DNA of 64,000 nucleotides from an uncultured Ruminococcus sp. (lineage in GTDB: Bacteria; Bacillota; Clostridia; Oscillospirales; CAG-272). The translations under genes and the position numbers were made by a program. Below are positions 3,366 to 36,633 of the stretch, piece by piece (position 1 is the stretch's first letter; each line of letters opens with the position of its first letter). The stretch spans positions 10,821 to 74,820 of the forward strand of contig CAZUPI010000004.1 of assembly GCA_964621755.1 (NCBI GenBank), given 5' to 3'. A model generated the notes under the pieces. That model ran no database searches, was not told the origin of the DNA, and saw nothing but the letters and a program-made list of their open reading frames with translations.

Positions 3366-4082
3366 TCATCGTGCCTCGGCAGCTTCTTCTTCATAGGCAA
3401 TCGCAATGTAGCCGAGCAAGCCGCCCCAGTGATAGAAATTGTTGCTGTTTGGTTTGTCGCAGCCCCAGCCGTCTGTGCCGTTGTAGTTTTCGTGAACGTC
3501 CATGAGCGGTCCATTCCTTCAGCAAGAGCGCACGGGAGCTTTCCGCCAGCAAGCTTCTTTTCCTTTTCCATTCCATCCTCGCACAGCGCTTCGTAGACGG
3601 GGAAATTCATCGCCGCCCAGAGCTCCTCCGGATTGCAGAGATACCGCGCCGACATGGACTCCTTCTGCCGCTCCGTCACATTCTTTGAAAAAGACTGTAA
3701 AGATTGGTCGGGGAAATTCTGTGGCTGAGCTTGCCTGTGGCGGCGTCACGGTTTTCGAAGATTCCGGCGTCCGGATTCCAAAAGGTCTGCATTGCAGCTT
3801 CGGTTTTATCAAGCCGTTCCTGCAGAACGGGAATTGCCTCCGGATGCCCGGCGATTTCCGCAAGCTCCATCAGACAGCGGCAGTCCTTGATGTAAAGCCT
3901 GGTCAGACCAACGTCGGACAGCAGCATACATTAACCAAAGCGCGGCAAAATAGGTATCCCAGCAGAAAGGACATATTCGCCCCATCCATCGCTCCACGAA
4001 CGGCTGACGGGGGAGCAAATGCGGTCGTGCTCCGGCTCGTAGACCGTATCCCACGCAAGACAGCTCTTCATGGCCTGAAATG
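3366..4082 (-). pseudogene. remnant of a six-hairpin (alpha/alpha)6 glycosidase (GH63/MGH1/trehalase-like), N-terminally truncated with multiple frameshifts
   Basis: Homology-like pieces lie in at least four different minus-strand frames. They read ...AWDTVYEPEHDRI.., FCWDTYFAALWLM, LLSDVGLTRLYIKDCRCLMELAEIAGHPEAIPVLQERLDKTEAAMQTFWNPDAGIFENRD..., TERQKESMSARYLCNPEELW, and my own translation of 3503..3366, [45 protein letters not shown]. No intact ORF exists. Confidence 0.55.
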
Positions 4083-5334
4083 TTATATCAGCTCCGCCTG
4101 TATTTCTGCGGCTGTGATTTCTCTGGGGGTCACGCCTTTTTTTACTGCCAGTGCAGCGGCAATTCCGGCGGCTTCCCCGATTCCCACGCAGATTGGCATG
4201 ACGCGGTAGTTGGAATGCGCTATATGCGTTCCGCTGATATTCCGTCCCGACAGCAGCAGTCCTTCCACGCCTTCGGGGAGAAGACAGCCATAAGGAATGG
4301 TGTAGCCCTTGGGCTGCTTCCACTGGTGCTGAATGCCGGTTGCGTCCAGCCCGGCGCCGGTCAGGTTGTGAACGTCAAAATTGAAGTGCGCGCCCCGGAC
4401 AACCCAATCGTCAAAAACGCGTGCGGTGAGAATGTCGTTTTCGTTCAGTGTGTACGCGCCCTTGAAGTGGCGGGTCTCACGAATGCCCATCAGAGAACCT
4501 GCGCTGATGATGTAGCAGTTCCGGAAGCCGGGGACGTATTCCCGGAGATATGCCACAATTGCGGGCATCTGGGAGCGGCATACCAGCTCAGCTCTGGTCA
4601 GGTCTTCCGCAAGTGTACCGTCGATTTCGGTGCAGTTGGTCATATTGCAGGTGACGATCCCCGGCAGGATAGGGGATATGCTTCTTTGCCACAGCCTGCA
4701 GTTCTCCGGCTGGGGTCTCATATGTAGACTCAAACGAGCCGAGGAAGACCGCGTGCTCCGTATCCACGCCGTCTACCTTGAACATTAGGGTTGCAGGCTG
4801 CATTTTTCCATCGCTCTCCCGTCCTTTGTAATACGGGACCCTGGCGAAGGCGGCAACGTCTCCGTCCCCTGTTCCGTCCACGAATATCTTTGCGGTAAAC
4901 ACACGCCGTCCGCTTTTGCTTTCGGTGATGACGCCTGTGATGCGGTTTTTGTCCATCACGACGCCGCAGACGAACGTGTACAGGAGGACGGTCACTCCTG
5001 CGTCCGCCAGCATCGCAAGATAGACGTCCTTGAGGTTTTCCGGATTGATGGTAGGCGTGATCTTCCCCTTTCTTTCGCCCTCATTCCGGTCTGCCATTGC
5101 CTGAAGCAGTTCGGTATAGAATTTGCTGTGTACCGTGCCGGTGAAATGGCTCATAAGACCCGAAGTCGAGATTCCGCCTACGACGTTGCTCCACTCGAGA
5201 AGCAGAACCCTAGCGCCATGCCGTCCGGCTTGAATAGCGGCGGACACGCCGGCGGGTCCGGAACCCGCAACGATAACGTCATACTCTCCCGCAACGGGAA
5301 GGTCTTTTGCCGGTTCATGAATATAGTTTGTCAT
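4083..5334 (-). pseudogene. FAD-dependent oxidoreductase (FAD_oxidored-type) split by one frameshift
   Basis: The N-part ORF 4588..5334 has the dinucleotide fold YDVIVAGSGPAGVSAAIQAG. The C-part ORF 4083..4733 continues the same family in another frame (..GIRETRHFKGAYTLNENDIL.., GRNISGTHIAHSNYRVMPICVGIGEAAG). The frames switch around 4650-4700, near C4/G4 runs at 4659-4662 and 4672-4675. Confidence 0.7.
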
Positions 5335-5355
5335 GTTGTTTCTCCTTGTAAATCA

Positions 5356-5730
5356 TCACGATTTTATATAATCCTCGCATGCTTGGATGTACGCGAGAAC
5401 GTTTTCAAGCGGTACTTCCGGTTCGAGCAGATGGGTCGGGCATACATAAAGTCCGCCGTGGCTTCCGGCAATATCAAGGTTTTTGAATACTTCACGACGT
5501 ACCTCATCCGGCGTACCGAACGGCATGACCGACTGGATCCCAATGGTTCCGTGAAAACTGAGACGGTCGCCGTATTCCTCGTGAATTCGCGCAAAATCCA
5601 TGCACTCCGGCTGTACCGGGTCGAGAACGTCGACTCCCGCTTCAATTAAATTCGGGATCAGTTCCGTTACGTGTCCGCAGGAATGATAGAAAATCACGAT
5701 TTCCGGGTTGATTGCCCCATGCGGCGTCAA
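5356..5730 (-). pseudogene. C-terminal fragment of a uroporphyrinogen-decarboxylase (URO-D/MtaA-like) family protein
   Basis: Translation ..INPEIVIFYHSCGHVTELIPNLIEAGVDVLDPVQPECMDFARIHEEYGDRLSFHGTIGIQSVMPFGTPDEVRREV..GGLYVCPTHLLEPEVPLENVLAYIQACE matches only the C-terminal third of URO-D family proteins. The N-terminal two thirds are absent. The boundary near 5730 is approximate. Confidence 0.6.
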
Positions 5731-6079: not shown

Positions 6080-8035
6080 TTATTCAAACATCTTCCGACT
6101 GCCGAATGCGTTGTAGATTTCTTCGAACCAGTTGTTGGTTGTTGGGACCGGGCGGACGGGGATGAAATCGTTGACGGCGGTGATTGCTTTGGAGGTGAGA
6201 AGGAGACGGGTGCGCTGGACTTTGGTGCGGTGGATTTGGTCGATTTCGGGCCGGTTTTCGATGAGGTAGGAGCCGCGTGAGGCGCCGCCGTCGTCGATGT
6301 AGGAAAGAATCGCGGACAGAACTGCACAGCGGGTGACGAGAGTGTCGTAGTTTATGGCGAGCTCTATCAGAGCAGCGTGGTCGGCGGCCCGATTTTTTGT
6401 GAAAAAGGACGAGAGTTCCTGCACGGTTTCGGTGTGGAGCGCGCGGACACCGGCGGGGGAGCGGAGAAAAGCCGCGTATTTGTCATGCAGAAGGGCGCTG
6501 TGTGCGCGTTTCGCAAGGACTTGGGTGCGGTCGAGCCTTACGCCGTCCGGGTCAGTCAGAAGATGCGAATATTTTGTGCATTCGGCGATTTGAGCAGTCA
6601 GGGCGTCTGACAGTATTTCGCCGGACTTTATATCAGGTGACATCGCGCATGCGCGTTCCGCCGCGCGGTAGGAGCCGACCTGCGTAGAATTAAGCGCAGA
6701 GCCGCCCGGTCGTTTGACGCCGAATACACCGCCGCACTCGCCGACCGGATAGAAATCACGGAGGGTGGGATTTTCGTACCAGATGTCGTTTTCGAGACCG
6801 CCGTTCATGTGCTGTGCCGCAACATGGATTTCGAGCATATCCCGCTCAAGGTCGACGCCGTGGTCAAGGCATACGCCATATGCGCGCTCGTTGATGGCGC
6901 GGAGACGCTTGATGGGGGTATCCTGCAGTGCGCCGGAGCTGAAGAGATAGTTGTATACTTCATCGCCCAGAGCTTCAGCGGTCATGGGAAGGTGGTCGAG
7001 GGAGGCGGGATTGCGGCGGAAATCCAGAAATACCCGTCTGCCTGCCATCGTTTCGTTGTATACTGCGATGTCGATAAGGGAGGAGCCCTCGCCGGGGGTC
7101 AGTTTTTCGGGATCGAAGGGCCACTGGTAGCCTTTGCGGAACACCGCTTTTATACTGCATAAAGGGGTGAATATATCGTATAAAAATTCACGTTCAGCTC
7201 CGGCGGAATCGATTGATATATAGCGCGGAATCGCCTGCTGAAACGAACCGGACAGGTTCCAGCGGAACGGTACCGAGGCGATGCCGTACTGGGATTCGGT
7301 CAGGTTTACAGCGGACGCACCGGCAAGAAGGGGGGCGCCGAGGGAGCAATTCTGGCTTTCCGGATAGACGGAGCTGTAGTACAGCGCGGAGGGACCGCCG
7401 GTTGCCCAAATTACGGCGCCGGACAGAAAAACTGTGAGCCCGGCGGGATTGTCAGGGGTAATCTCAGATTGAGAGAGGCAGACGACGCCGCGGGCATGAT
7501 TGTCTTCCGTCAGCACGTGGACCGCACGATAGCCGTCGTAAAGGGGGATTTTTGCGGAAAAACACGCCTTTTCGAGGGCTTCTGTCATGTATTTGGAGGT
7601 ATATGGTCCGCAGGAGGTAGCACGTCCGCGCTCGTCATGGTCGGTTTGGTAGCCGGGATATTCGCCGAAGCGGTCGTGGGGAAAGGGAACACCGAGGGCA
7701 ACCAATCCGAAGAAGGCGCGGAGAGAGCCTGCGGCTTCGGTCAGAGCGAGGTCCCCGTGCATGGAGCCCATAGAAAAGTAATCCTTTGCCATTTCCGCTG
7801 CGCTGTCGCTTTTGTAGGCGGACGTGGATTGTTTATAGTAGGTTTGTTTATCCGACCCGGTGTTGCGGGAGGTTCCCATCATTCGCCCTTCGGTGATGAC
7901 GGCTACCTCAGCGCCCAGCCGGTGTGCGGTCAAAGCGGCATTATATGCAGCCGCGCCGCTTCCGATTACGGCAATTTTGCATAAATATACAGAAACGCGA
8001 GTCCCTGCGACGGTGAGATATTTTTGATTTTTCAT
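6080..8035 (-). CDS. FAD-binding protein, fumarate-reductase/succinate-dehydrogenase-flavoprotein-like (FAD_binding_2 type), stand-alone
   Basis: Intact 651-aa ORF. It has an N-terminal Rossmann motif KIAVIGSGAAAYNAALTA, then EGRMMGTSRNTGSDKQ and ..IWATGGPSALY.. blocks typical of this flavoprotein superfamily. No Fe-S or membrane partner is adjacent. Confidence 0.65.
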   Translation of the reverse strand: MKNQKYLTVAGTRVSVYLCKIAVIGSGAAAYNAALTAHRLGAEVAVITEGRMMGTSRNTGSDKQTYYKQSTSAYKSDSAAEMAKDYFSMGSMHGDLALTEAAGSLRAFFGLVALGVPFPHDRFGEYPGYQTDHDERGRATSCGPYTSKYMTEALEKACFSAKIPLYDGYRAVHVLTEDNHARGVVCLSQSEITPDNPAGLTVFLSGAVIWATGGPSALYYSSVYPESQNCSLGAPLLAGASAVNLTESQYGIASVPFRWNLSGSFQQAIPRYISIDSAGAEREFLYDIFTPLCSIKAVFRKGYQWPFDPEKLTPGEGSSLIDIAVYNETMAGRRVFLDFRRNPASLDHLPMTAEALGDEVYNYLFSSGALQDTPIKRLRAINERAYGVCLDHGVDLERDMLEIHVAAQHMNGGLENDIWYENPTLRDFYPVGECGGVFGVKRPGGSALNSTQVGSYRAAERACAMSPDIKSGEILSDALTAQIAECTKYSHLLTDPDGVRLDRTQVLAKRAHSALLHDKYAAFLRSPAGVRALHTETVQELSSFFTKNRAADHAALIELAINYDTLVTRCAVLSAILSYIDDGGASRGSYLIENRPEIDQIHRTKVQRTRLLLTSKAITAVNDFIPVRPVPTTNNWFEEIYNAFGSRKMFE

Positions 8036-8212
8036 ATTTGTTTGATTGATTCTCCTCGTTTCTGCATCGCTTATTTCGGATATCCTGCGATCGTAGTCAT
8101 TATATCATACCGCTCCCAAAATAGCAAGCCGGGACGCGCAGTTTATAAAAAAGCTGATGCGAGCGCCGTGTCGGACTGTGTAAAATTATAGAAAAATTAA
8201 ATTTTAAATATA

Positions 8213-8241
8213 TTGACATAAGTGACGGGATGTTGTATAAT
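8213..8241 (+). promoter_or_regulatory. sigma-A type promoter (TTGACA-17-TATAAT)
   Basis: TTGACA at 8213-8218, an exactly 17-nt spacer, and TATAAT at 8236-8241. It lies about 48 nt upstream of the 8289 start. Confidence 0.6.
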
Positions 8242-8288
8242 TATAGTGTATAAGAAAAATTTGTAATTCCCATATGAAGGAGACGATT

Positions 8289-9617
8289 ATGAAAAACAGT
8301 GTAAGAAGACTTTCCGCTCTTCTCGCAGCGTTGACAATGGGTTCAGCTTTTGCTGTTACGGCTTCTGCGATAGACACAAATTTCATCAAGGTTTCGGGGT
8401 CTGGCACAACGAGCAGTTCAACGGAATACGCGATTTATGAAAACGGCGGTTACTACTTCAAAGGCTACTACTATATCGACGATGACGCGGTTGTATCAGA
8501 GGCCGCAAAAACAGTCGCATCGACTGGCGAAACAACGTATGTCCTCAAGAATGACAATTCTTGGATCAAGACCGGAACGAGCGGCATCCTGCCGTCCACT
8601 TCCACTTCTACCGTTACCAAAAGTCCTTCGACTGTTTTCGTAACAAAGCCGACTGCAACAAAATCGGTTTCCACCTACAAGAACTATTCCGTCATTAGCG
8701 GCGGCAAGTACTACTCTTACATGGACGCGGAGAGTGAACTCAAAAAGTACTTTGAGAATAACACCTATGCGATGTTCCTGTACGAAGGGGACGAGAGATT
8801 CTTCTGCTCCGATGTATACTTTGTAAGCACCGACAACGACGTTGTATATTATGATTACACCGAGGGCAAACTGGTGGCGAATGAAGCCGGTAACGCATAT
8901 GTTTACGTTTATACAAAGGGCGGCATACCGTTCTTCCGTCTAAACGTGTCTGTTATCCGTACCCTGTCCACGACCAGCAAACCGTCCGTAGTACAGCTCA
9001 TCCCCGATCAATGGCACCTCGACGAAGCGGGCGATACTACCGGCTTCACCATCAAGTGTGACCAGAAATATAATGCCAATGACTTCACCCTCTCCGTTGT
9101 ATACGGCAACGACATCGCGTCCATCGTCAATGGTAAGCTCAAGACCACAGGCTGCGGTCCGATCGTCGTTCGTGTAAGCAACAAGAGATACGGCAATGTG
9201 TACGGCGAAGCGCTCATTTATGTGGGCAAGTATGTTTCTTCGATTTATGACGGCTACTATACCACAACCGGCGGCAAGGTCGTAACAAAGTATTGGGACT
9301 ACGACATTTCCGACCTGTGCAATAGCTATATCGCCGGTTGGATTAAGTCCGATGAAGGTACGTTTATCCCGGTGATTAAAAAGAGCGCTGGCACGGTTGT
9401 CAATGCAGACGGCACCACAAAACAGACCACAGTGGTAAGCTATGAAAATGTGAGCGTAGCGGACCTCATTCGTCAGGCATACGGCGATAAAGAGGAGCTC
9501 GCAACCATCATCACAAAATACAATCTCGCAAAGAACGGCAAAACCGTTGTCAATTCCAGTGATGATTTTGACTACGTGAGATTCATCCTTTCGCAGGCAT
9601 ACAGCTTCGGCAAATAA
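8289..9617 (+). CDS. secreted protein of unknown function (signal peptide, Ser/Thr-rich linker)
   Basis: AAGGAG RBS lies 7 nt before the ATG at 8289 (the ORF-track start 8274 lacks an RBS). The signal peptide reads MKNSVRRLSALLAALTMGSAFAVTASA. A PSTSTSTVTKSPSTVFVTKPTATKS linker follows, and the remainder looks beta-rich. A terminator follows the gene. Confidence 0.6.
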   Translation: MKNSVRRLSALLAALTMGSAFAVTASAIDTNFIKVSGSGTTSSSTEYAIYENGGYYFKGYYYIDDDAVVSEAAKTVASTGETTYVLKNDNSWIKTGTSGILPSTSTSTVTKSPSTVFVTKPTATKSVSTYKNYSVISGGKYYSYMDAESELKKYFENNTYAMFLYEGDERFFCSDVYFVSTDNDVVYYDYTEGKLVANEAGNAYVYVYTKGGIPFFRLNVSVIRTLSTTSKPSVVQLIPDQWHLDEAGDTTGFTIKCDQKYNANDFTLSVVYGNDIASIVNGKLKTTGCGPIVVRVSNKRYGNVYGEALIYVGKYVSSIYDGYYTTTGGKVVTKYWDYDISDLCNSYIAGWIKSDEGTFIPVIKKSAGTVVNADGTTKQTTVVSYENVSVADLIRQAYGDKEELATIITKYNLAKNGKTVVNSSDDFDYVRFILSQAYSFGK

Positions 9618-9641
9618 TAAACGGAAGGAATGCAAAAAAAT

Positions 9642-9672
9642 TACCCGGATGTATTTCCGGGTATCTTTTTTG
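9642..9672 (+). terminator. rho-independent terminator
   Basis: Stem TACCCGGA / TCCGGGTA followed by TCTTTTTTGG, 25 nt after the stop at 9617. Confidence 0.7.
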
Positions 9673-9682
9673 GGAGGAAAAA

Positions 9683-10228
9683 ATGGAACTTTGGGATATT
9701 TACGACATTGACCGTGTGAAGACCGGCCGCACCATGGTGCGCGGGGAAACTTATCCGCCGGACGCGTACCATTTGGTGATACATATCTGCCTTTTTCGTT
9801 CAGATGGAAAGATGCTGGTCCAGCACAGACAGCCGTTCAAGTCCGGATGGTCCAATATGTGGGACGTGACGGTCGGCGGATCGGCGGTTGCAGGAGACAA
9901 CAGCCAGACGGCGGCAGAACGTGAGCTTGCGGAGGAAATCGGATACCATTTTGACTTTGCAGAAAAAGGCGTGCGTCCCGCGCTGTCAGTCAATTTCGAC
10001 CATGGTTTCGACGACATTTATATTATCAAGGAGGATGATGTGGACCTGTCAAAGCTGCACCTGCAATATGAGGAAGTCAAAGAGGTAAAATGGGCGAACA
10101 AGGAAGAAATCTTCGCCATGATTGACGCGGGCGAGTTTATCCCGTATCACCGCTCGTTTATCGAGCTGCTGTTCTACCTGAAAGACTGTGCAAGCAGCAC
10201 AGTGGTAACGGATTTTACAAAAGCATAA
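9683..10228 (+). CDS. NUDIX hydrolase
   Basis: GGGAGG RBS. Nudix box GGSAVAGDNSQTAAERELAEEIG matches GX5EX7REUXEEXGU. Confidence 0.85.
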   Translation: MELWDIYDIDRVKTGRTMVRGETYPPDAYHLVIHICLFRSDGKMLVQHRQPFKSGWSNMWDVTVGGSAVAGDNSQTAAERELAEEIGYHFDFAEKGVRPALSVNFDHGFDDIYIIKEDDVDLSKLHLQYEEVKEVKWANKEEIFAMIDAGEFIPYHRSFIELLFYLKDCASSTVVTDFTKA

Positions 10229-25331: not shown

Positions 25332-26840
25332 ATGAAATTCAAGCATATTCCGCCGTTTGCCGCGCTCGTTTTTGCGACGATACTTACGTTTCAGGCGACA
25401 TCGTGCGGTTTTATTATAGTCAATGACATGGCAGCACAGAGTGCCAGTGAGACCGACGCCGCTTCCGAAACCGAGGGAGACGCTGCCGAACCGTTCACCG
25501 GGACGGCATACACGAAGTACGCGGGGGAAGATATGTATACGCAGTCGCGCCGATACTTGGCGGAGCTGCCGGAGCGTGACTATGATGGGGCGGTATTTTT
25601 CATTACCACCCCATCGAAGGACTATATTTCCCCCGACAACACGGATACGACGGTGAATAAACTTGTGGTCGAACGGAACGCCGATGTAGAGGAGCAGTTT
25701 GACGTGACCATTATCACCTCTGTTGTGGAGGCGTCGACTATGCTGTCCGAGCTGACGCAGTGCATCGCGGCGGGCTCGTACTACAGCGATCTTTTGATGA
25801 TACCGGTGTACATGGTTGGGCAGTTCCGCAGCGCCGAGACCCTGATCAACATGCGCACTCTGCCGTTTTTCGATATCGAGCAGCCGTATTTCAATGCTGA
25901 ATCGTCCGACATGACCTCGGGCGGCTACTCGACGTATGGTGTGGCAGGGGACGCGTCGATTGCGCCGTCGTCGTTTTCCGCGGTGTTCATGAACAAGACG
26001 ATACTGGAAGAAGCCGGTGTGGACACGCCGACGATTTATAAGTCGGTGATAGAGGGAACGTGGACATGGGACGACCTACTCGGCTGCGCGGAGGCGGTCA
26101 AGACGATAAACGGCAGCCGTGGGGCAGCGGGGCTGAACGAATACTACACCATCACCGCGCAGAACACGGCTGACAGGCTGCCGGACCTTGTATTCAAATC
26201 GGGCGGCAACAACTACATCCTGGCGGGAAAGCGCACCGTCCCGGCTATCGGGTACTCGGTGAAGTCGTCGCAGGCGACGATGAACGTCCTTGCCTCGATT
26301 TACAACGACAGTCACGCCATAACGGACTCGTCAGCGGGCGCGATAAACTGCTTCTCGGCAGGAGAGTCCGCATTCTTGGTGGATTACCTGTACGTTATGT
26401 CGTGGATGATCAACGCGTCAGCGGACTGGGGCGTTCTTCCGCTGCCGAAGGGTGACGAAAACGACGAGTATCGCACGTTGATATCAAACACAGAGCTGAT
26501 TTTTGCGGTGCCGAAAAATCATACGAACGGTGAGTTCCCGGCAATTATCCTATCTGCGCTGAACGCAGCGTCATACGGCTACATCTATGATGAATACGTC
26601 GACTACCACATGATTCACGTACTTCGCGACAACGATTCCGTCAACATGCTGGACTTGATTCTCGATACAGCATCGTTCGACTTCGCCCTCGCCTTTGGAA
26701 ATGCGTACCCAACCATAGCCGCAGCTACCTACCGCCTCATCCGCGACTGCGCCGCTACAAATAACCTCGCTGATTATTTCACCGACCGGAAGACAACGGC
26801 AACTGAGACGCTGAAAGAATATTTCCCGCTGAAGCCTTAA
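25332..26840 (+). CDS. extracellular solute-binding-protein-like lipoprotein (about 500 aa), orphan
   Basis: Lipobox LTFQATSCG. Overall architecture and blocks (DYDG.., ..ERN..V...F.V.I) are shared with the 35011..36483 paralogue. No permease or ATPase gene is adjacent. Confidence 0.65.
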   Translation: MKFKHIPPFAALVFATILTFQATSCGFIIVNDMAAQSASETDAASETEGDAAEPFTGTAYTKYAGEDMYTQSRRYLAELPERDYDGAVFFITTPSKDYISPDNTDTTVNKLVVERNADVEEQFDVTIITSVVEASTMLSELTQCIAAGSYYSDLLMIPVYMVGQFRSAETLINMRTLPFFDIEQPYFNAESSDMTSGGYSTYGVAGDASIAPSSFSAVFMNKTILEEAGVDTPTIYKSVIEGTWTWDDLLGCAEAVKTINGSRGAAGLNEYYTITAQNTADRLPDLVFKSGGNNYILAGKRTVPAIGYSVKSSQATMNVLASIYNDSHAITDSSAGAINCFSAGESAFLVDYLYVMSWMINASADWGVLPLPKGDENDEYRTLISNTELIFAVPKNHTNGEFPAIILSALNAASYGYIYDEYVDYHMIHVLRDNDSVNMLDLILDTASFDFALAFGNAYPTIAAATYRLIRDCAATNNLADYFTDRKTTATETLKEYFPLKP

Positions 26841-26850
26841 AGAAAAGGAA

Positions 26851-26892
26851 GGCGTTAGGGGAACACTTTTTCAAAAGTGTCCCCCTAACGCC
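26851..26892. repeat. palindromic hairpin (family member R4)
   Basis: GGCGTTAGGGGAACACTTTT-TC-AAAAGTGTCCCCCTAACGCC, a 20-bp stem with one mismatch, 11 nt after the stop at 26840. Confidence 0.8.
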
Positions 26893-26915
26893 TCCACATT
26901 TCGCAGAAAAACATC

Positions 26916-26944
26916 TTGTTAAATCTATTGTTTCGTGATATAAT
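26916..26944 (+). promoter_or_regulatory. sigma-A type promoter for the cytochrome-c cluster (TTGTTA-17-TGA-TATAAT)
   Basis: TTGTTA at 26916-26921, a 17-nt spacer ending in TGA (extended -10), and TATAAT at 26939-26944. It lies about 58 nt upstream of ATG 27002. Confidence 0.55.
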
Positions 26945-27001: not shown

Positions 27002-27691
27002 ATGAAAAAACGAAAAATTCAGCTCTATGATGCGGTGTGCGCGGCTCTTCTTCTGATAACGTTGTTTTTCCTTGTACTCACCGTGAAGTTTTCCACAGGA
27101 AGTTCGGTCAACTTTAACGGTGCGGTCACGACGGCTGTGCTGGCATTTGGCGGCGTTCTCGCGTTCGGTTCGCTGTTTGCGCGGCGGCTGTCCGGCGGTG
27201 CGGTGAAGAAGACCGGATTTTATCTTGCTCATGCGGGGGTTGTTTTGATTCTTGTGGGATTTGCACTGTTCCAGCTATTCGGAGATACAGTGACTGCGGC
27301 AGTTCCGGTGGGCGGCGACACTTTTTATTCGCAAATCCAGCGGGAATCGGGGGAGATGTGCGACCTTGGCTTCAACTTCCGTGTGGACGATTTTGAAATC
27401 GAGACTTATGAGGATGGTTCGGACAAGCAGTATTATGCGGGTCTGGCCTTTGCGGATGAAGTTACGCTGCGGGTAGACACGTCTGAGTTGTCGGTGAATC
27501 ACACGGTACGCCGCGGCGGGTGGAAAATCTACCTTATGAATTATAGCAGCGGGTACGTAAGTCTGATGTTCCGCCGCGACCCGGGCGAGTATGTTGTGAA
27601 GGCGGGGATTGCAGCGCTGATTGCGGGATGCGTTCTCTCCCTCATCGCCGGAAACGGGGTGCGCAAGAAGGAGGAGAACGCCGATGCGTGA
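27002..27691 (+). CDS. miniature ResB/CcsB-like cytochrome c biogenesis protein
   Basis: 229 aa. TM helices flank a short extracytoplasmic loop. Blocks resembling the ResB family: GFYLAHAGVVLILVGFAL (conserved His in a TM), FNFRVDDFEIETYEDGSDKQYYAGLAF, LSVNHTVRRGGWKIYLMNYS and MFRRDPGEYVVKAGIAALIAG. The stop overlaps the next start (ATGCGTGA). Confidence 0.65.
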   Translation: MKKRKIQLYDAVCAALLLITLFFLVLTVKFSTGSSVNFNGAVTTAVLAFGGVLAFGSLFARRLSGGAVKKTGFYLAHAGVVLILVGFALFQLFGDTVTAAVPVGGDTFYSQIQRESGEMCDLGFNFRVDDFEIETYEDGSDKQYYAGLAFADEVTLRVDTSELSVNHTVRRGGWKIYLMNYSSGYVSLMFRRDPGEYVVKAGIAALIAGCVLSLIAGNGVRKKEENADA

Positions 27692-28457
27692 CGTTATTTT
27701 GCGCGGAATTATTCTTTTGGCCACTCTTTTGTACGGCGGGGCGCTTGTGCTGTATCTGCGGCGGAAGGCCAAAGTCGGCGGTATCGTCTGGATTTTGGCG
27801 GAGGCTTTGTCGGTCGTCCTTGTGGTGAACAATTTTGTGGTCAACGGATACGTGCCGTTTGTGAGCATGTATCAGCTTTTGACCTTTGCGGCGGCGCTTT
27901 TTGGTGTGGTGTATTGTTATATTGCGCGTCTGCGGAATGGAAAATGGGCGGCGCCCTACTTTATCGGGTGTTCGCTCGTGGCGTCGCTTGGGCTGTGCTT
28001 TATGGACATTCACGCGGTATGGCATTTTCCGCCGGCGCTTCGGTCGGTATGGTTCGTTCCCCACATTCTGGCGTACGTGATATCTTACATCATGGCGGCA
28101 GCGGCGTTTGCCATGACGGTCACGAAATTTTTCGCAAAAGGCGAACGAAGAAAACAGCTCGACGGCGGAATTTACGACTGCGTATGCGTACTGTTCCCGT
28201 TCATGTCGATGGGGATGCTGTTCGGCGCGGTATGGGCGAACGAGGTCTGGGGTGCATTCTGGAGCTGGGACATCAAGGAATGCTGGTCCCTTGTGACATG
28301 GCTGACCTTTATGACATGGCTCCACGTCCGCCGCAGTCCCAGATTCTCGAGATTCAAGGACGTCCTCCTCGTCGCCGGATTTGCATTCGTGATTGTGACA
28401 TTCTTTTTTGTGAATCTCATGAATGCGGCGGGGGGATCTATGCATGCGTATAACTGA
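27684..28457 (+). CDS. ccsA: CcsA/ResC-like cytochrome c assembly (haem-handling) protein
   Basis: AGGAGGAG RBS lies 8 nt before ATG 27684. It is polytopic. The WWD haem-handling motif reads WGAFWSWDIKECWSLVTWL, with flanking conserved His in VPHILAYV and WLHVRR. Confidence 0.8.
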   Translation: MRDVILRGIILLATLLYGGALVLYLRRKAKVGGIVWILAEALSVVLVVNNFVVNGYVPFVSMYQLLTFAAALFGVVYCYIARLRNGKWAAPYFIGCSLVASLGLCFMDIHAVWHFPPALRSVWFVPHILAYVISYIMAAAAFAMTVTKFFAKGERRKQLDGGIYDCVCVLFPFMSMGMLFGAVWANEVWGAFWSWDIKECWSLVTWLTFMTWLHVRRSPRFSRFKDVLLVAGFAFVIVTFFFVNLMNAAGGSMHAYN

Positions 28458-28597: not shown

Positions 28598-30733
28598 ATG
28601 AAATCAAAATGGAAGTTGTTGTTGGCGGCTTTGCTGTTGCCTGTGCTTGCGGCATGCGGCACAGTTGAGCGGTCGGACAACGTTGCGCCTACGCTGGAGG
28701 AGCGGATTGATGCGGAAGAATATATTTCGCCATCGTCCGTTTTTGTGGCGGAGGACGGATTTATTTATGCTGCGGATGAGACTGGCGGGCGGGTATTGAA
28801 GCTGAATCCGGACGGCAGTATTGCGGCGCAGGCTGTGCTTGAAGGCGGCGCGCACTGTATCAGGGTATACGGTGATTCGGTTTACGTCGCGCGGGGAGAG
28901 CTTGACGGGACGTTGGCGGTACTCGATGAAGATTTGCGGTTAACCGGAGAATACATAGTTGGACACACGCCGACGGATATCGAGTTTTCGGAAAGCAGAA
29001 TTTATGTTACGAACCGGTTTTCGAATACGGTTTCGGTAATTGATACGGAGTCGGGAGACATTAGAGAAATCCCTGTTGGGCGGGAGCCCATGGCGGCGGC
29101 GATTGCGAACAACAAGCTGTATGTTGCGTGCCATCTGCCCGATGATGCTGCAAACGCGGATGTTGTCAGTGCGTCGGTTTATGTTATCGATATGGCGACG
29201 GAGGCGGTGCGCACGATTGAGCTTGTCAACGGGACGGGCGGCGTGAAGGATATCGAGGCTGCGCCTGACGGAACAAGACTCTTTGTGTCCGCCGTGATTG
29301 CGCGGTATCAATATCCTACGACCCAGCTTGACGGTGCGTGGATCAACTCGAACGGATTTGCCATCATTGATGCGGAGACTGACGAGTATGTGAACACGAT
29401 TCTTCTCGATGATGTGACGCTCGGGGCGGCGTCCCCGTGGGGCATTGCTTTCGGAGGGGGAAATGTGTACTTTGCGGCGTCGGGGACAAGTGAAATCATC
29501 AGCTTTCCGCTCGACCGGCTGGATTCGCTGCTTGGCTCTGCGGCCTACCGCGGACGGGAGCTTGCGGACGAAATCGGCATTTTGAACAGCATCCGCACCC
29601 GGACCGAGATGCCGGGCGAGGGGGTACGGGATATCATGTATGCGGAGGGCAAGCTCTACTGCACGGAGTACTTCACCGGTGACCTTGCGGTGCTTGATAC
29701 TTCCGATATGACCATTGCCACCTTATCCCTTGGAGAGCAGCCGGAAGCAGATATTGTGCGCCTTGGTGAGACGTTGTGGTATGACGCGACGAAATGCTAT
29801 CAGCAATGGGAGGCTTGTGCGTCCTGCCATCCCGACGGACGTGTGGACGGCTTCAACTGGGACAACCTGAACGATGGCCTCGGTAATCCGAAATCTGCGA
29901 CCTCCATGATGTATACGCACCGCTGTCCGCCGGTTATGACGACGGGCATTCGCGCCAACGCGGAAACTGCGGTCCGTGCCGGCATGAAGTATATTCAGTT
30001 CAACACCATTGACGAGGAGTCCAACTGTGCGATTGATGAATATTTGAAATCCCTTCTTCCGGTCGACTCACCAGCGCTGAACCTCGATGGGACCCTCAGC
30101 GAGGCGGCAGCGGAAGGAAAACTGCTGTTCACGGAATATGGCTGTGTGACTTGTCATCCCGCACCCTTGTACACGGACCTTGAGTATCACACCTCTCCGA
30201 TTCTGGGGGAGGATGGCGGATGGGAAAACCGCGATTTTGTAACGCCGACCCTCGTCGAAGTTTGGAGAAGCGCGCCGTACATGTACAACGGCTCGGCTCT
30301 TACTCTTGAGGATGCGGTGAGACATTTTGTCCCCGAAGGAACTTCGGAGGAGAAGATTGAGAAGCTGGCCGAGTTCGTCCGTTCTATCGGCAGTTCCGGT
30401 GAGATTTACGGGGTCGAGCAGCTTTATTCCGTAGGCGCGGACGGAGGCGAAGTGCAGGGAAGACCTGTGGAATATACGCGTATCAGCGGATTTACCGTTC
30501 GCTGTCAGAGTGAGGATGCGCCCGCGTGCAAAGCAATTCTGACGCTGACGGGAGATGACGGGCAAGTTTCCTATGAGACCAATATCGGAACTGTGCCGTA
30601 CAATACGGCGGTGCGTGTGACCGTTGACGTGGACTTGTATGCACAGCCTGGCGGCGAGGTCCGCCTTGCGCTGGTCGACAAAAAGGGCAATCCGCTGGCG
30701 TCCGAGTACGTTCTGACAGTCAAGGAAAGCTGA
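28598..30733 (+). CDS. lipoprotein: YVTN-type beta-propeller fused to di-haem cytochrome c peroxidase (CCP/MauG)-like domain
   Basis: AGGAGA RBS. Lipobox LLPVLAACG. Propeller repeats include IYVTNRFSNTVSVIDTESG, KLYVACH and RLFVSAV. Two haem-c motifs are present, CASCH and CVTCH. The CCP-like block reads FVTPTLVEVWRSAPYMYNGSALTLEDAVRHF. Confidence 0.75.
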   Translation: MKSKWKLLLAALLLPVLAACGTVERSDNVAPTLEERIDAEEYISPSSVFVAEDGFIYAADETGGRVLKLNPDGSIAAQAVLEGGAHCIRVYGDSVYVARGELDGTLAVLDEDLRLTGEYIVGHTPTDIEFSESRIYVTNRFSNTVSVIDTESGDIREIPVGREPMAAAIANNKLYVACHLPDDAANADVVSASVYVIDMATEAVRTIELVNGTGGVKDIEAAPDGTRLFVSAVIARYQYPTTQLDGAWINSNGFAIIDAETDEYVNTILLDDVTLGAASPWGIAFGGGNVYFAASGTSEIISFPLDRLDSLLGSAAYRGRELADEIGILNSIRTRTEMPGEGVRDIMYAEGKLYCTEYFTGDLAVLDTSDMTIATLSLGEQPEADIVRLGETLWYDATKCYQQWEACASCHPDGRVDGFNWDNLNDGLGNPKSATSMMYTHRCPPVMTTGIRANAETAVRAGMKYIQFNTIDEESNCAIDEYLKSLLPVDSPALNLDGTLSEAAAEGKLLFTEYGCVTCHPAPLYTDLEYHTSPILGEDGGWENRDFVTPTLVEVWRSAPYMYNGSALTLEDAVRHFVPEGTSEEKIEKLAEFVRSIGSSGEIYGVEQLYSVGADGGEVQGRPVEYTRISGFTVRCQSEDAPACKAILTLTGDDGQVSYETNIGTVPYNTAVRVTVDVDLYAQPGGEVRLALVDKKGNPLASEYVLTVKES

Positions 30734-30749
30734 GGAGGGATTCTATATT

Positions 30750-33700
30750 ATGAAGAAAACGATTCAAATTCTGTCCCTTATCCTAACGCTTGCGATGCTC
30801 TGCAGCGCGGTGGTGATTTTTGCGGCAGGTGACAAGCTGTCCTTCTCTTTGTCGAGCGAAGCGGTGCTGGTGAACACCTATGAAGCCGGCGAGAATGCCG
30901 ATGTGATTGGCAGGCTGTATGAGGAAACGCCGTATTATATTGTGGTTCGGCACCGGCAGCTCGGCGCGTCGCATTACGCTTATACAGAAGCGCTCGCGGA
31001 AGACCTCGGTCAGGACAACGCGGACCCGGAGGGCGGGGAAGCGGTCTTCAATCCCGGATCGGAGCTTGTGCTTGTGACAATTGTGAAGGACGGCGACACG
31101 TACTCCACTTATGAAGACGTGCTTCTGTCCTCGAAAAAAGGCGTCATCCGCGACCCGGATGTGTCTGCGGACGGGACCAAAGTCCTGTTTTCGTGGAAGC
31201 AGCAGAGCACGGACGACTATCATCTCTACGAAATGACCCTTCAGAACCGGGAAATCAGGCAGCTCACTTTCGGCTCCGGCGTCGCCGATACCGAAGGAAA
31301 ATACCTGTCGGACGGCTCGATTATTTTCAGCTCCTCAAGGGATATCCAGACTGTGGACTGCTGGATAACTCCCGTATCGAACCTATATAAGTGCAGTGCA
31401 GACGGAACGGATATCATCCGGCTCGGCTACGACCAGGTCCACACCTCTTACCCGACCGTGACCTCGGACGGGCGAATCATCTACACCAGATGGGACTACA
31501 ACGACCGCACGCAGATGTGGATTCAGTCGGTATTCCAGATGTTCGAGGACGGCACCAACCAGACCGAGCTGTATGGCAACAATTCGGATTTCCCGACGTC
31601 TCTTCTGCACACGCGCGAGGTGCCGGGGCATCCGGGACTGTATCTTTCTATCGCCTCCGGACATCACGTTTATCAACACGGCAAACTGGTGCTGATAGAC
31701 ACGTCGGTCGACAGAAACAGCAGCGACGCGGTGGAATTTGTTTTCAGCGACGGCACCCGGAAGGAAAATAGCGTCGACACCTTCGGGCAGTCCGGCAGGC
31801 AGTACAAATACCCTTACGCGTTTTCGGACGACTTGTTCCTCTACTCGGCAGTGGACAATTACACCGGTGTGAGTGCGGAATTTTCCATTTATGCTTATGA
31901 CAGAACGACTGATACGGAGGTTGAGCTGGTGACGGGCACAAAGGGAATCGGCGCATCGCAGATTGTTCCGGTCTACACCCGCGACCTGTTCACCCGCCCC
32001 AGCATGGTCAACTATGCTTCGGAAACCGGAACGTTCTACGTATCAAACGTGTATGAAGGGGAGGCAATGGAGGGCGTTGAAGTCGGCTCCGTGCAGTATT
32101 TGCGGGTTGTTGAGCTGGAATTCCGCTCCTCCGCAATAGGGGCTACGGTCGCAGTTGGCTCGGGCTCCGCTGACCCGTTTTCCCCTATTGCAACGGGAAA
32201 TGGCTCGTGGGACGTCAAAACCGTGCTTGGCGTGGCGCCGGTTGAGGAAGACGGGAGCGCGCTGTTCAAAGCGCCCGCGAATACGCCGCTGTTCTTCCAG
32301 CTGCTCGACGAAAACGGATGCGTCGTTCAAACCATGCGTTCTTGGACGACTCTCATGCCAAACGAGACCTTCTCCTGTGTGGGCTGCCATGAGGATAAAA
32401 ACATCGCTCCCACGGTCAGCGGGACGGTCACCATGGCTATGAAAAAGGGTGTGGTTGAAATCGAACCGGACCTGTGGATGACCGACGAAACGTATGACCC
32501 GTATACGGACGCGGTGGGCTTCTCGTTCCTTGAGGAAGTGCAGCCGATACTGGATAAGAACTGCATCGTCTGCCACTCCGACACCGACGAAGCCTACTCC
32601 CTGATAAGCGCACGCGCGGCAGCAGGATACGACACCACCCCCGCGGACGTTATTCTGGCCGAGGATGCAGTATGGCACTACACGACCACAGCACCAGCCG
32701 CCGACTGGCTGACCGACTTTACACCGGACTCTGCCTCACACGCGCCCTTTGCCGACGGCGAGACCGAGCCATACGAACACAATACCGTGTGGACCTCCGG
32801 GGAGCTTTGGGCGCGGACGACCTTCACCGGTACTGTTTACGACCTCAACAACTCCTCTCTGGCGTTCACGGGACAGCTTTGCGGCAAGGCGGAAATCTAC
32901 CTCAACGGCGCCCTTGTGGCGGAGGTTGAAAACAAGACGTCCGACGTCGTGAGTATTCCGGTGACTGGAGACATGCGAGAGGCATTCCTGTTTGGGGAAA
33001 ATACACTTGCGGTACACGTGACCGACGGCAAGTATTTTACCCTAGGTCTGACCTCTTTGGCGAGTGCAACAGGAGATCAGAAGTACTTTATCAGGCAGTA
33101 CGCATTGTGGGAATATATCAGAGCGAAGGATTTGTCCTATGCTCCCGACGGCTGGATCACGCTTGAAGATGATTCGACCAAATGGCAGACCGGACAGACC
33201 CCGTTCGGAGACCGCACCATTGACGGTATCGGCTATAAAACCGCATGGTCAGGGGCTGCCAACGCAATTTTCATCAGGCGCACGTTTACGGTAGACGATA
33301 TTGAAAAGTTCAAAAACTCGTCTCTTTGGACCAAAATCACGTATGACGACGGCATCAAGCTCTACATCAACGGCAAGCTGCTGTACGAAGACACGGGCTG
33401 GGTCGACAATTACGTCGAGATTGAGCTGTGTAAGGATGCGGCGGAATACCTCGTCGAGGGAGAGAACATCATTGCGATATCCCTCTGCAATACGGCGGGC
33501 GGACGACAGATAGACCTGTCCCTGTACGCATACGAAAGGGAACCGAATCAGGAGGAGGTCGAACCCCTTGACTCGTCCCGCGAATCGGCATTCTCGCTGG
33601 AAAACATCAACGTGGTCGGCTCGCGGCAGAAGAAATACTGGCCCCTGTCCTATCTTGTTCTCACCGGCTCTTATCCCAGCAGTACAAACTGGCTTGCGTC

Positions 33701-34826: not shown

Positions 34827-34830
34827 TAAT

Positions 34831-34864
34831 ATAGGGGGAAACTTTTCGGAAAGTTTCCCCCTAT
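34831..34864. repeat. palindromic hairpin (family member R5)
   Basis: ATAGGGGGAAACTTT-TCGG-AAAGTTTCCCCCTAT, a perfect 15-bp stem, 5 nt after the stop at 34826. Confidence 0.8.
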
Positions 34865-34891
34865 ATTTTATTTTATTCATGTGAGTTGGCC

Positions 34892-35010: not shown

Positions 35011-36483
35011 TTATCCACCAATTCCCAGTGCTTCGATGGCCTTTTCAATTGTTTTTGAGAAGGAGCGCTCGTATCTGGCAGCGGCGGAGGCGTACTGGCC
35101 GTCTTTTAAGCCGGCGTTATATGCTACGATTGGGGAGCTTACGTTGAAGGCGTAGCTGAGGTCGTAGGCGCGTTTTGTAATGAGGTCTTTGAGGAGCGCG
35201 GCGCTTTCACGGTCGCGGGTACCTTTACCGATTACCGCTTTTTCGATGTAGACGTCGAGCACGTTGTCGTATGTGTCGGCTGCAAGAGCTTCGATGATGG
35301 TCGCCAGACGTTCATCGTTGTCGCAGTCAGAGGGGATGATGATGGTAAACGGATTCTGGATGTATACCATGCCGTCGGTGTTCTCGGCGAGTGACGGGTA
35401 TGCGATGATGCCGTAGTCATCCTCTTTGTCACGAAGGTTACGGAAGTCGCCCATCAGACGGCTGTAGAACAAAACGCTTCCTTCTTTGAAGAGGTTTCTG
35501 GTTTCATCATTTCGTCCGACCAGCGAGTAGTTTGTGTTATTGATGATTTTGTTCATCCAGTCGCCGACCGCCATGACGTTTTCGTCGGTAATATTCAAGA
35601 CATAGGTATTTGCAGACTCATCAAAGACTATCAGACGCAGGTTTGACGAGTACAGGCTCGGCAGGTATTCAAAATCACGGCCCGCCCAGCCGAAAATGTC
35701 GTGGGCTTCGTCCATCTTGCCGTCGCCGTTCTGGTCAACCGCAACTTGAGTCATCATGTTGTACATGGCGTCAAGCGTCCACTTTCCGGCGGTATACAGC
35801 TCGTACGGTGTGTCCGCAATGTTGTTGTCCTCAAGTAAGTCAGCGTTGTAGAAAAGGAGAGCCATTGATTCGTAGTGGTCGAAGCTGATGTCACAGTGTC
35901 CGTAATAGAGCTTGCCGTTGATGGTCAGAGTTTCCTGGGAACCCTTATCCCAATAGGGTTTTGTCAGATCAATCACCGGCATGTCAGAGATTGCCTTCAC
36001 GTAGTTCTGGGATATCAAATCCATACATTCCTGAAGGAGTGCGTAGCCAAATCCGACGTCCCCGGTTCCTGCTGTTACAGAATTTTTGATGAGGCTGACT
36101 GCACCGGTGGTGTTTTCTTCAATTACAACATTGAACTTGTCCATTACACGGACATTTCGGTCATAAATGGCGTCATTGAACGCGTCCCCTGTCAGCTCTT
36201 CCGTTGTGAAAGCGCTGAAATACTCCTCGCTGAGTCCGTTGTTTGCGATGTGCAGCGTCCAGCCGTCGTAGTCGACTGCGGCAATTTCATCTGCATAGTG
36301 GGTTTGACCGTCATCTTCCTCTGCAATTTGGGTCTCGGTGGATGCCGTATCATCGGCAGTGACGGTTGTCGGAACGCTCGTTTTATCTTCAGCGCTGTTT
36401 TCTGTGGAGTCTGAGCATGATGCCGTCATGAGCATGAGCAGAAGCGCTATAAAGATCGCTGTTCCCTTTTTGAAGCTATTCAT
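35011..36483 (-). CDS. extracellular solute-binding-protein-like lipoprotein (about 490 aa), orphan paralogue
   Basis: AGGAGAG RBS before ATG 36483. Lipobox LMLMTASCS. Distant paralogue of 25332..26840 (shared blocks DYDGW, IYDRNVRVMDKFNVVI, PYWDK). No transporter genes are adjacent. Confidence 0.65.
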   Translation of the reverse strand: MNSFKKGTAIFIALLLMLMTASCSDSTENSAEDKTSVPTTVTADDTASTETQIAEEDDGQTHYADEIAAVDYDGWTLHIANNGLSEEYFSAFTTEELTGDAFNDAIYDRNVRVMDKFNVVIEENTTGAVSLIKNSVTAGTGDVGFGYALLQECMDLISQNYVKAISDMPVIDLTKPYWDKGSQETLTINGKLYYGHCDISFDHYESMALLFYNADLLEDNNIADTPYELYTAGKWTLDAMYNMMTQVAVDQNGDGKMDEAHDIFGWAGRDFEYLPSLYSSNLRLIVFDESANTYVLNITDENVMAVGDWMNKIINNTNYSLVGRNDETRNLFKEGSVLFYSRLMGDFRNLRDKEDDYGIIAYPSLAENTDGMVYIQNPFTIIIPSDCDNDERLATIIEALAADTYDNVLDVYIEKAVIGKGTRDRESAALLKDLITKRAYDLSYAFNVSSPIVAYNAGLKDGQYASAAARYERSFSKTIEKAIEALGIGG

Positions 36484-36633
36484 TTTTCTCTCCTGTGTTT
36501 GACCTTTGTTGAAAGATGTCCTAAGTATACCATAATTCCGGAAAATATGCAATATTTTTTTAGAAATGCGACCAATTTACGCGTAAAATTTAAGTAAAGC
36601 TTAAGAAAAACGTACCTTATTTAAAAAAAATTC

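Follow-up and report, generated by a model that had tools for sequence, protein, structure and literature searches.

A predicted surface-anchored, hydrazine-synthase-like beta-gamma protein encoded with an alpha-like partner and a haem lyase in an uncultured gut Clostridium

To our knowledge, hydrazine synthase (HZS) was long regarded as an enzyme without relatives. The HZS of anammox bacteria (HzsBC plus HzsA; PDB 5C2V) resides in the anammoxosome lumen, and its beta and gamma subunits, a propeller followed by a di-haem domain resembling cytochrome c peroxidase (CCP), are fused in Ca. Scalindua. In late 2025, distant HZS homologues were reported from diderm environmental bacteria (Hagglund et al., December 2025; PMC12758564). 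That computational study describes non-anammox pairs of beta-gamma-like and alpha-like proteins in clades I-IV, which have lost the key residues of HZS; its main text deals with Planctomycetota, Desulfobacterota, Acidobacteriota and Verrucomicrobiota, and Clostridia (Oscillospirales CAG-272) are represented only by alpha matches in its supplementary table. Here we analyze a stretch of 64,000 nucleotides from an uncultured Ruminococcus sp. of the latter lineage (contig CAZUPI010000004.1 of GCA_964621755.1; hereafter the window) and, within it, the protein encoded by the open reading frame (ORF) at 28598-30733. We propose, with a probability of about 0.7, that this protein supplies the beta-gamma-like half of an HZS-like enzyme that carries four haems and works outside the cytoplasm, because HZS subunits are the best sequence and structural relatives of both large proteins encoded by its four-gene operon.

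A first-pass annotation, made from the letters of the window alone, had described the product as a lipoprotein, held at the outer face of a cell without a periplasm, that joins a YVTN-type beta-propeller to a di-haem domain of the CCP/MauG type, and this architecture is borne out. The N-terminus reads MKSKWKLLLAALLLPVLAA-C20, a canonical lipoprotein signal that satisfies the pattern [LVI][ASTVI][GAS]C and includes the lipobox LLPVLAACG at residues 13-21; the product is a predicted lipoprotein with a predicted membrane anchor on the outer face. Because a Cys at about residue 17-22 directly follows the hydrophobic segment in all members of the close clade, these are probably lipoproteins as well, whereas more distant relatives possess a lipobox, a signal anchor or a dockerin in place of a uniform lipobox. 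The propeller repeats picked out previously are found at residues 135-153 (IYVTNRFSNTVSVIDTESG), 173-183 (KLYVACHLPDD), 227-237 (RLFVSAVIARY), 288-300 (GNVYFAASGTSEI) and 352-367 (KLYCTEYFTGDLAVLD), and the YVTN repeat model of NCBIfam scores 67.7 bits against a cut-off of 27.85. The AlphaFold 2 (AF2) model built with 50 homologues (predicted local distance difference test score, pLDDT, of 83; predicted template modelling score, pTM, of 0.86) contains 28 strands, which make up seven blades of four strands each between residues 45 and 377; a helical di-haem domain and then a beta-sandwich come after them. The pLDDT is low at propeller-loop residues 238-246. The sandwich has no Pfam match and appears to be specific to the Clostridial clade, because matches to non-Clostridial relatives end near residue 597. 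The two CxxCH motifs, which had also been placed correctly in the C-terminal third, show 100% conservation across 120 homologues, which reach down to 43% identity, so that the loss of haem motifs that the annotation had proposed to look for in orthologues is not observed. Given the invariant motifs, the YVTN score above its cut-off and the seven-bladed model, the pattern of propeller and CxxCH motifs is beyond chance. Cys400 (nt 29795-29797), seven residues ahead of the first CxxCH motif, is 98% conserved and is Ser in HZS gamma; it may provide an extra haem link or a disulphide.

The interpretation that had been placed on this architecture holds in part: the best relatives of the protein are HZS beta and gamma and not the CCPs, and both the operon partner and the haem-handling proteins CcsBA had been missed. 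In a phmmer search of PDB sequences, the protein matches the gamma and beta chains of Kuenenia HZS (5C2V) with E-values of 1.9e-11 and 3.5e-11, respectively, against 1e-4 for the best CCP. The family profile aligns with HZS beta (5c2v_B) at full length (chain residues 15-349; E 2e-24) and with HZS gamma at E 3e-23, while CCPs are matched at 1e-12 or weaker and only over the second haem domain, so that HZS gamma alone covers the first. With the isolated di-haem domain the E-values are 9e-14 for 5c2v_C and 5.7e-06 for the best CCP. Foldseek also returns 5c2v_B as the top match of the AF2 model (E 1.4e-17, template modelling (TM) score 0.81).

The last gene of the operon encodes a protein that Pfam PF18582 (HZS_alpha) recognizes with 111.7 bits against a gathering threshold of 26.6. 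The alignment of its profile with 5c2v_A (E 3e-34) takes in the propeller, the middle domain and the two haem motifs, and an AF2 model of residues 1-660 of the protein has 5c2v_A as the top Foldseek match (E 9e-26, 692 columns), followed by TolB (2e-11). As in HZS, the partner consists of a propeller, an HZS_alpha middle domain and two haem motifs, and the genes are arranged in the order beta-gamma, then alpha. Both large proteins are predicted to be exported, one by its lipobox and the other by a signal peptide, and each carries two invariant CxxCH motifs. In Clostridia a two-haem alpha-like protein invariably accompanies the beta-gamma-like protein, either as its pair partner or fused to it, and the gene order ResB-CcsA-beta-gamma-alpha is kept in about 30 loci, down to 43% identity. 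Two relatives, P0178 (1440 aa) and P0214 (1336 aa), are single polypeptides with four CxxCH motifs each, in which a PD40 propeller and an HZS_alpha part precede a beta-gamma-like propeller and a di-haem part. Because such natural fusions constitute Rosetta-stone evidence, the beta-gamma-like and alpha-like proteins probably act as one complex.

Two regions of the beta-gamma-like protein are shared with HZS in particular. The environment of haem 1, W421 D422 ... D426 G427. G429 .. K432, is common to the protein and HZS gamma (WD..DG.G..K), and the propeller loop at residues 237-252, in which Y237, P240, T241, Q243, D245, W248 and N252 are invariant in the 120 homologues, aligns with loop 245-260 of HZS beta, which extends towards the tunnel between the haems (PMC12607021). 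Glu253 of HZS beta corresponds to Q243 or D245, depending on the numbering offset, and D245 is Gln in the fusion P0214. By conservation, H441, M447, M463 and H531 are candidate axial ligands; H531 is conserved in CCPs too and is not diagnostic. In contrast to these common features, identity to HZS in the structural alignments is about 16-18%, the key residues Cys165, Asp168 and His144 of HZS gamma and Tyr591 and Cys303 of HZS alpha are absent, and the protein has an additional C-terminal beta-sandwich and its alpha-like partner an extension of about 700 aa with lectin-like character. Unlike HZS, the protein is predicted to be lipid-anchored on the surface of a monoderm cell.

We propose that haem would be imported by the cell, because neither ALAD nor ferrochelatase was found in the host genome (a 2.63-Mb draft that is 95.6% complete), and that CcsBA would export this haem and, on the outer side of the membrane, attach it to the two proteins. 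The alpha-like partner may then dock on the lipid-anchored propeller as in HZS, a contact that the alpha-beta-gamma fusions support. At the gamma-like haem 1 (His411) a small oxidant or N/O-oxide could be bound, haem 2 (His520) could relay electrons, and the loop 237-252 could gate a passage that leads to the haem with a His ligand in the alpha-like subunit, whose lectin-like C-terminal domains may hold the enzyme on a polymeric substrate or present that substrate to it. The reaction is predicted not to be hydrazine synthesis. Our tentative first choice, itself less likely than not, is a surface reaction of the peroxidase kind or an oxidation driven by peroxide or another oxidant; reduction of nitric oxide (NO), hydroxylamine or a similar small molecule is a less likely alternative, and electron transfer alone is improbable. 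Oxidant-driven chemistry, for instance with peroxide, is slightly favored over a reductase because no electron donor is conserved with the operon. A more speculative version, which we consider a long shot, is that haem-auxotrophic gut Clostridia, as well as Akkermansia and many glycan degraders of the Planctomycetes-Verrucomicrobia-Chlamydiae group, display a two-site HZS-like surface enzyme with a so far undescribed two-step small-molecule reaction. For example, NO, a nitrite-derived species or peroxide might be reduced at the gamma-like haem, and a gated tunnel might couple this step to the alpha-like haem, where a second substrate would be condensed with the product or oxidized.

Several observations weigh against the assignment to a four-haem HZS-like enzyme. 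AF2 confidence is low in the invariant haem-1 loops (residues 418-453), and the matches of the C-terminal approximately 700 aa of the alpha-like protein (two galactose-binding-like and one C-terminal discoidin-like) are weak and below the Pfam threshold. Clustering of the flanking ORFs of 23 Clostridia loci revealed no fifth conserved gene, electron donor or further partner near the operon, and the genome shows no evident donor of the quinol-linked or small cytochrome kind, where such absences rest on a draft that is 95.6% complete. Some relatives, for example those of Akkermansia, have no alpha-like gene within 8 kb, and the beta-gamma-like part may therefore also work alone. The non-anammox HZS-like family as a whole is known from sequence and prediction alone.

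Among the alternatives, the one that fares best, and that we consider possible if rather unlikely, is a surface- or cellulosome-associated oxidative enzyme in which a MauG- or RoxA-like high-valent haem modifies a polymer (a glycan, a glycoprotein or a plant-wall phenolic) that the alpha-like protein holds with its lectin-like domains. Among relatives of the beta-gamma-like protein (P0070, P0142, P0169 and P0204) there are domains of the type I dockerin, PKD, Laminin_G_3, Calx-beta and CarboxypepD_reg families, with dockerin scores of 30.8 bits in P0070 (gathering threshold 22.9) and 38.3 bits in P0142, which suggests cell-surface or cellulosome-type display, and F5_F8_type_C passes its cut-off in a relative. 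The family also occurs mainly in lineages of glycan degraders (herbivore-gut Clostridia, Planctomycetota, Verrucomicrobiota, Lentisphaerota, Kiritimatiellota, Hydrogenedentota and Bacteroidota), there is a weak RoxA-like match, and such an enzyme would not need an external electron donor. All of this evidence is circumstantial, however: the habitat is mostly anoxic, the lectin-like domains of the protein encoded here stay below Pfam thresholds, no carbohydrate-active enzyme is conserved beside the operon, and polymer oxidation by an HZS-like enzyme is without precedent.

A classical di-haem CCP or MauG-type enzyme that scavenges H2O2 on the surface, with the propeller as a docking platform, was the reading of the first-pass annotation and is distinctly unlikely. 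The protein has the same two-domain di-haem fold as CCP, MauG, MbnH and RoxA (PF03150), and the CCP_MauG profile suggested as a check does reach 25.9 bits, marginally above the gathering threshold of 25.6, with no single stretch that passes. The second haem domain is matched by structures of CCPs, and the match extends to the block TPTL...PY..G..TLE.AV, which had been recognized as CCP/MauG-like and is present as FVTPTL...VRHF at residues 547-577; the Ca-site-like T549 and P550 in it are near-invariant, and gut anaerobes encounter peroxide. On the other hand, HZS gamma matches far better, and the first haem domain resembles that of HZS gamma only. The proposed comparison of the distal residues of CCP and MauG-type enzymes turned out against both. 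At the position of the Met of the AVxxM motif, which we take to be the axial ligand in CCP structures and to be Tyr in MauG, the protein has Phe577, as aligned to 3o5c_A (EEAVNTM) and 1iqc_A (LEQAVETM). The inter-haem Trp (Trp94 of CCP, Trp93 of MauG) has been equated with His144 of HZS gamma (PMC12758564), and, mapped indirectly through that residue, it is Thr or Val: the His144 position is Thr448 (Val or Thr in the family) beside the invariant Met447, in an alignment that is uncertain by about one residue. Because neither the Met ligand nor the inter-haem Trp is conserved, the protein is predicted not to be a classical CCP or MauG. It further differs from these enzymes in its fusion to a propeller and its constant pairing or fusion with a two-haem alpha-like protein in Clostridia, and the 95.6% complete genome holds no other cytochrome c or evident electron donor.

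It is very unlikely that the four haems serve merely as a wire, in a surface conduit or terminal reductase for extracellular electron transfer. The haem proteins are predicted to be exposed on the surface of a monoderm, they are the only plausible cytochromes of the cell, and ApbE flavin transferases are present in the genome. Against this, there are just four haems across approximately 2000 residues, haem alpha-II of HZS is too far from the other haems for efficient electron transfer (PMC12607021), no membrane partner linked to quinol or NADH is conserved with the operon, and the strongly conserved non-haem loops point to catalysis.

The subunit architecture, the gene order of anammox bacteria and the position of HZS subunits as the best structural matches of both proteins could also be taken to indicate a genuine hydrazine synthase, or another enzyme that forms N-N bonds, and thus anammox-type chemistry in a gut Firmicute. 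We rejected this candidate, which is highly improbable, on the curated cut-offs and on five key residues. The best NCBIfam model of the beta-gamma-like protein is hydrazine_BC for the beta-gamma fusion (69.5 against a cut-off of 1250), followed by hydrazine_gamma (51.7 against 625) and hydrazine_beta (44.1 against 560), and the alpha-like protein scores 48.9 against 800 with hydrazine_alpha, so that all scores are far below the cut-offs. Cys165 of HZS gamma provides a third thioether to haem gamma-I, and Asp168 is the distal proton donor (PMC12758564, PMC12607021); the segment of 5c2v_C that holds both, LDRVCGRDPGF, falls in a gap of the family profile, and His144 is replaced as described above. 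In the alpha-like protein, the proximal ligand Tyr591 (chain residue 564) is Asn551, within a conserved CHEDKN, and Cys303 (chain residue 276), which forms a Zn site with His587, is Asn278. An ORF-level CxxCH screen of the 95.6% complete genome yielded no candidate for hydrazine dehydrogenase or for octahaem proteins of the HAO type, nor any other multihaem protein that could oxidize hydrazine, and PMC12758564 arrives at the same conclusion for other non-anammox homologues. Equally improbable is a BtuG-like propeller that captures a tetrapyrrole (corrinoid or haem) at the surface, which we rejected: the organism appears to depend on scavenged haem, and BtuG1 and BtuG2 are among the sequence and fold matches of the propeller, but this similarity is of a generic YncE/YVTN type and much weaker than that to HZS beta (TM score 0.59 against 0.81 and a full-length profile alignment), and the invariant CxxCH motifs, CcsBA and the alpha-like partner would all be left unexplained.

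Table 1. Positions in the window of the beta-gamma-like gene, its domains and the other elements of the operon.
Feature	Coordinates	Strand	Description or basis
Beta-gamma-like di-haem lipoprotein, HZS-like	28598..30733	+	711 aa; third gene of the four-gene operon
Signal peptide, lipobox VLAAC	28598..28657	+	Cys20 is the predicted lipidation site; read from sequence
Seven-bladed YVTN propeller, aa ~40-378	28715..29731	+	HZS beta homologue; profile against 5c2v_B, Foldseek
Propeller hairpin loop, aa 237-252	29306..29353	+	Conserved; 120-homologue alignment and profile alignment to HZS beta 245-260
Di-haem domain, aa 383-597	29744..30388	+	HZS gamma homologue, CCP/MauG more distantly; profile, domain-only search
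CxxCH no. 1, CASCH, aa 407-411	29816..29830	+	Proposed catalytic haem site; 100% conserved
CxxCH no. 2, CVTCH, aa 516-520	30143..30157	+	Proposed electron-relay haem; 100% conserved; aligns with second haem motif of HZS gamma and CCPs
C-terminal beta-sandwich, aa 600-711	30395..30730	+	AF2 strands 604-707
HZS-alpha-like protein, 1358 aa	30750..34826	+	Signal peptide, TolB/PD40-like propeller, two CxxCH; Pfam HZS_alpha 2.5e-32
HZS_alpha middle domain, aa 446-548	32085..32393	+	Pfam; ends in CVGCH, aa 543-547 (nt 32376-32390)
Second CxxCH of alpha-like protein, CIVCH, aa 605-609	32562..32576	+	Invariant in 36 alpha-like sequences; aligns with second HZS alpha haem motif
Short ResB/CcsB-like membrane protein, 229 aa	27002..27691	+	Four predicted transmembrane segments, His77 at start of the third; Pfam ResB 1.3e-23
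CcsA/ResC haem lyase	27684..28457	+	Pfam Cytochrom_C_asm 2.7e-25, NCBIfam ccsB 8e-37
Promoter-like site, TTGTTA-17-TATAAT, extended TG	26916..26944	+	10/12 consensus match only
Stem-loop, 20 bp, bidirectional	26848-26895		Closes upstream solute-binding protein gene; precedes promoter-like site
Terminator-like stem-loop, bidirectional, 18 bp plus T run	34828..34867	.	Directly after stop codon of alpha-like gene

The operon comprises, in this order, the genes for a short ResB, CcsA, the beta-gamma-like lipoprotein and the alpha-like protein, and the promoter-like and terminator-like sites bracket exactly these four (Table 1). The ResB-like match is confined to profile positions 147-266 of 486, and a ResB-like gene is located upstream of the beta-gamma/alpha pair in at least 16 Clostridia loci. 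This short form, which ranges from 229 to 314 aa across Clostridial loci, has a small external domain of about 100 aa. The likely start codon of CcsA is the ATG at 27684, which follows AAGGAGG and overlaps the end of the ResB gene, while the longest ORF begins with the TTG at 27621. CcsA contains the WWD motif WGAFWSWD flanked by His148 and His235 (numbered from the TTG start), and its NCBIfam ccsB score of 127 is under the equivalog cut-off of 187.6. The WWD motif with its flanking His residues and the His of the ResB-like protein at the start of a transmembrane segment are those of System II (CcsBA/ResBC), from which the locus differs in that ResB is cut to 229 aa and lies with CcsA inside the operon of its only two apparent substrates. 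Two paralogous solute-binding lipoproteins of about 500 aa are encoded on either side of the operon (25332-26840 on the plus strand and 35011-36552 on the minus strand); they were rejected as parts of it, being outside the stem-loops and conserved only in the four closest loci.

In the ORF-level screen of the genome, no further ORFs with at least two CxxCH motifs and a signal peptide were found. Two other CxxCH ORFs, of 484 aa and 134 aa, were rejected as cytochromes because their motifs are in zinc-ribbon-like CxxC...CxxC contexts, and the count of the CxxCH DNA pattern over the genome is not above that of a reversed-pattern control. The single Cytochrom_C_asm gene of the genome is the CcsA gene of the operon. 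On this evidence, the beta-gamma-like and alpha-like proteins are the only plausible c-type cytochromes that the genome encodes. Cytochrome bd, like ALAD and ferrochelatase, was not found in the 95.6% complete genome, and ALAD was also not found in two other carriers of the cluster (93% and 97% complete); the host thus appears to be a haem auxotroph that scavenges haem for just these two proteins. Compared with anammox bacteria, its draft genome lacks hydrazine dehydrogenase, nitrite reductase and any other cytochrome. The monoderm setting, which the annotation had assumed, agrees with the failure to find Omp85 in the genome (95.6% complete), with a sortase encoded in the 64-kb window, and with the labels of same-genus and nearest records (Eubacteriales/Clostridia).

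A survey of the fusion, which had been recommended along with its first description, showed that the family is large: no fewer than 564 genomes of different species carry it, and a separate count, with E of 1e-30 or better, gives at least 429 clusters at 50% identity. In addition to Clostridia, the family is found in Planctomycetota, Verrucomicrobiota (Akkermansia included), Lentisphaerota, Kiritimatiellota, Hydrogenedentota, Acidobacteriota, Nitrospirota and Bacteroidota, and the nearest homologues are from metagenome-assembled genomes (MAGs) of goat, deer and sheep guts. Within the class the cluster is patchy, occurring in four of the 399 sampled genomes (that of the window included) and in 4 of 24 congeners. 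Loci of other phyla mostly have the alpha-like gene upstream of the beta-gamma-like gene, or have none within 8 kb.

The annotation had held that such a surface-tethered fusion is not a characterized architecture in Firmicutes. The arrangement itself has precedents: PMC12758564 reports, outside anammox bacteria, fused beta-gamma-like proteins beside alpha-like ones, and these homologues retain both C-terminal haem motifs and have lost the key residues of HZS. In clades I-III of that study, the alpha-like gene is upstream, an FG-GAP/CRTAC1 gene is present and Trp occupies the position of gamma His144, and clade I has eight extra haems. In contrast, the Clostridial clade has the beta-gamma-like gene upstream, a short ResB and CcsA, Met/Thr instead of Trp, and attachment by lipobox, dockerin or signal anchor, in genomes that are apparently unable to make haem. 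A maximum-likelihood tree of 81 proteins groups the 27 Bacillota sequences together, as a clade on its own branch with 99% support in the Shimodaira-Hasegawa-like approximate likelihood ratio test; midpoint rooting served only to draw the tree, from which we do not derive a donor. Because families are mixed inside the Bacillota group, the tree suggests transfer among gut Clostridia. What is new here is a monoderm Clostridial clade with an anammox-like gene order and an embedded short ResB and CcsA, together with lipid, signal-anchor or dockerin anchoring, alpha-beta-gamma fusions and a haem-auxotroph context. Our literature searches on Akkermansia, CCP and propellers and on Oscillospiraceae, cytochrome c and haem auxotrophy returned no relevant report.

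A compact and self-sufficient version of the HZS-like system, consisting of a haem lyase, a beta-gamma-like and an alpha-like protein, would thus be spread among uncultured Clostridia of animal guts, where it points to an unrecognized use of scavenged haem and to an equally unrecognized extracellular redox activity in the gut microbiota. It would also give the HZS-like superfamily a simple genetic context for its ancestral function, namely four genes and no competing cytochromes. If the two-step, two-site reaction were true, the gut would host extracellular haem chemistry of a new class, and the enzyme would represent the functional ancestor type of anammox hydrazine synthase; if the enzyme is a peroxidase variant only, its interest is modest.

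Three further occurrences of the family were noted. MAGs of Akkermansia sp. and Akkermansia muciniphila carry a beta-gamma-like gene whose product is 38-39% identical to the protein analyzed here (8001-9788 of locus L060 and 3636-5423 of locus L062), and ResB and CcsA are encoded downstream of it in the former locus. A complete 4.8-Mb genome of the class Clostridia, which has ALAD and may be that of a cultured organism, encodes, in this order, a CcsBA-like protein of 663 aa, an alpha-like protein of 704 aa and a beta-gamma-like protein of 870 aa (L091, 5213-11992). Pfam HZS_alpha is above its cut-off in the control genome of Bacteroides thetaiotaomicron, and WP_011109257.1 (844 aa) is given as an HzsA match in the supplement of PMC12758564.

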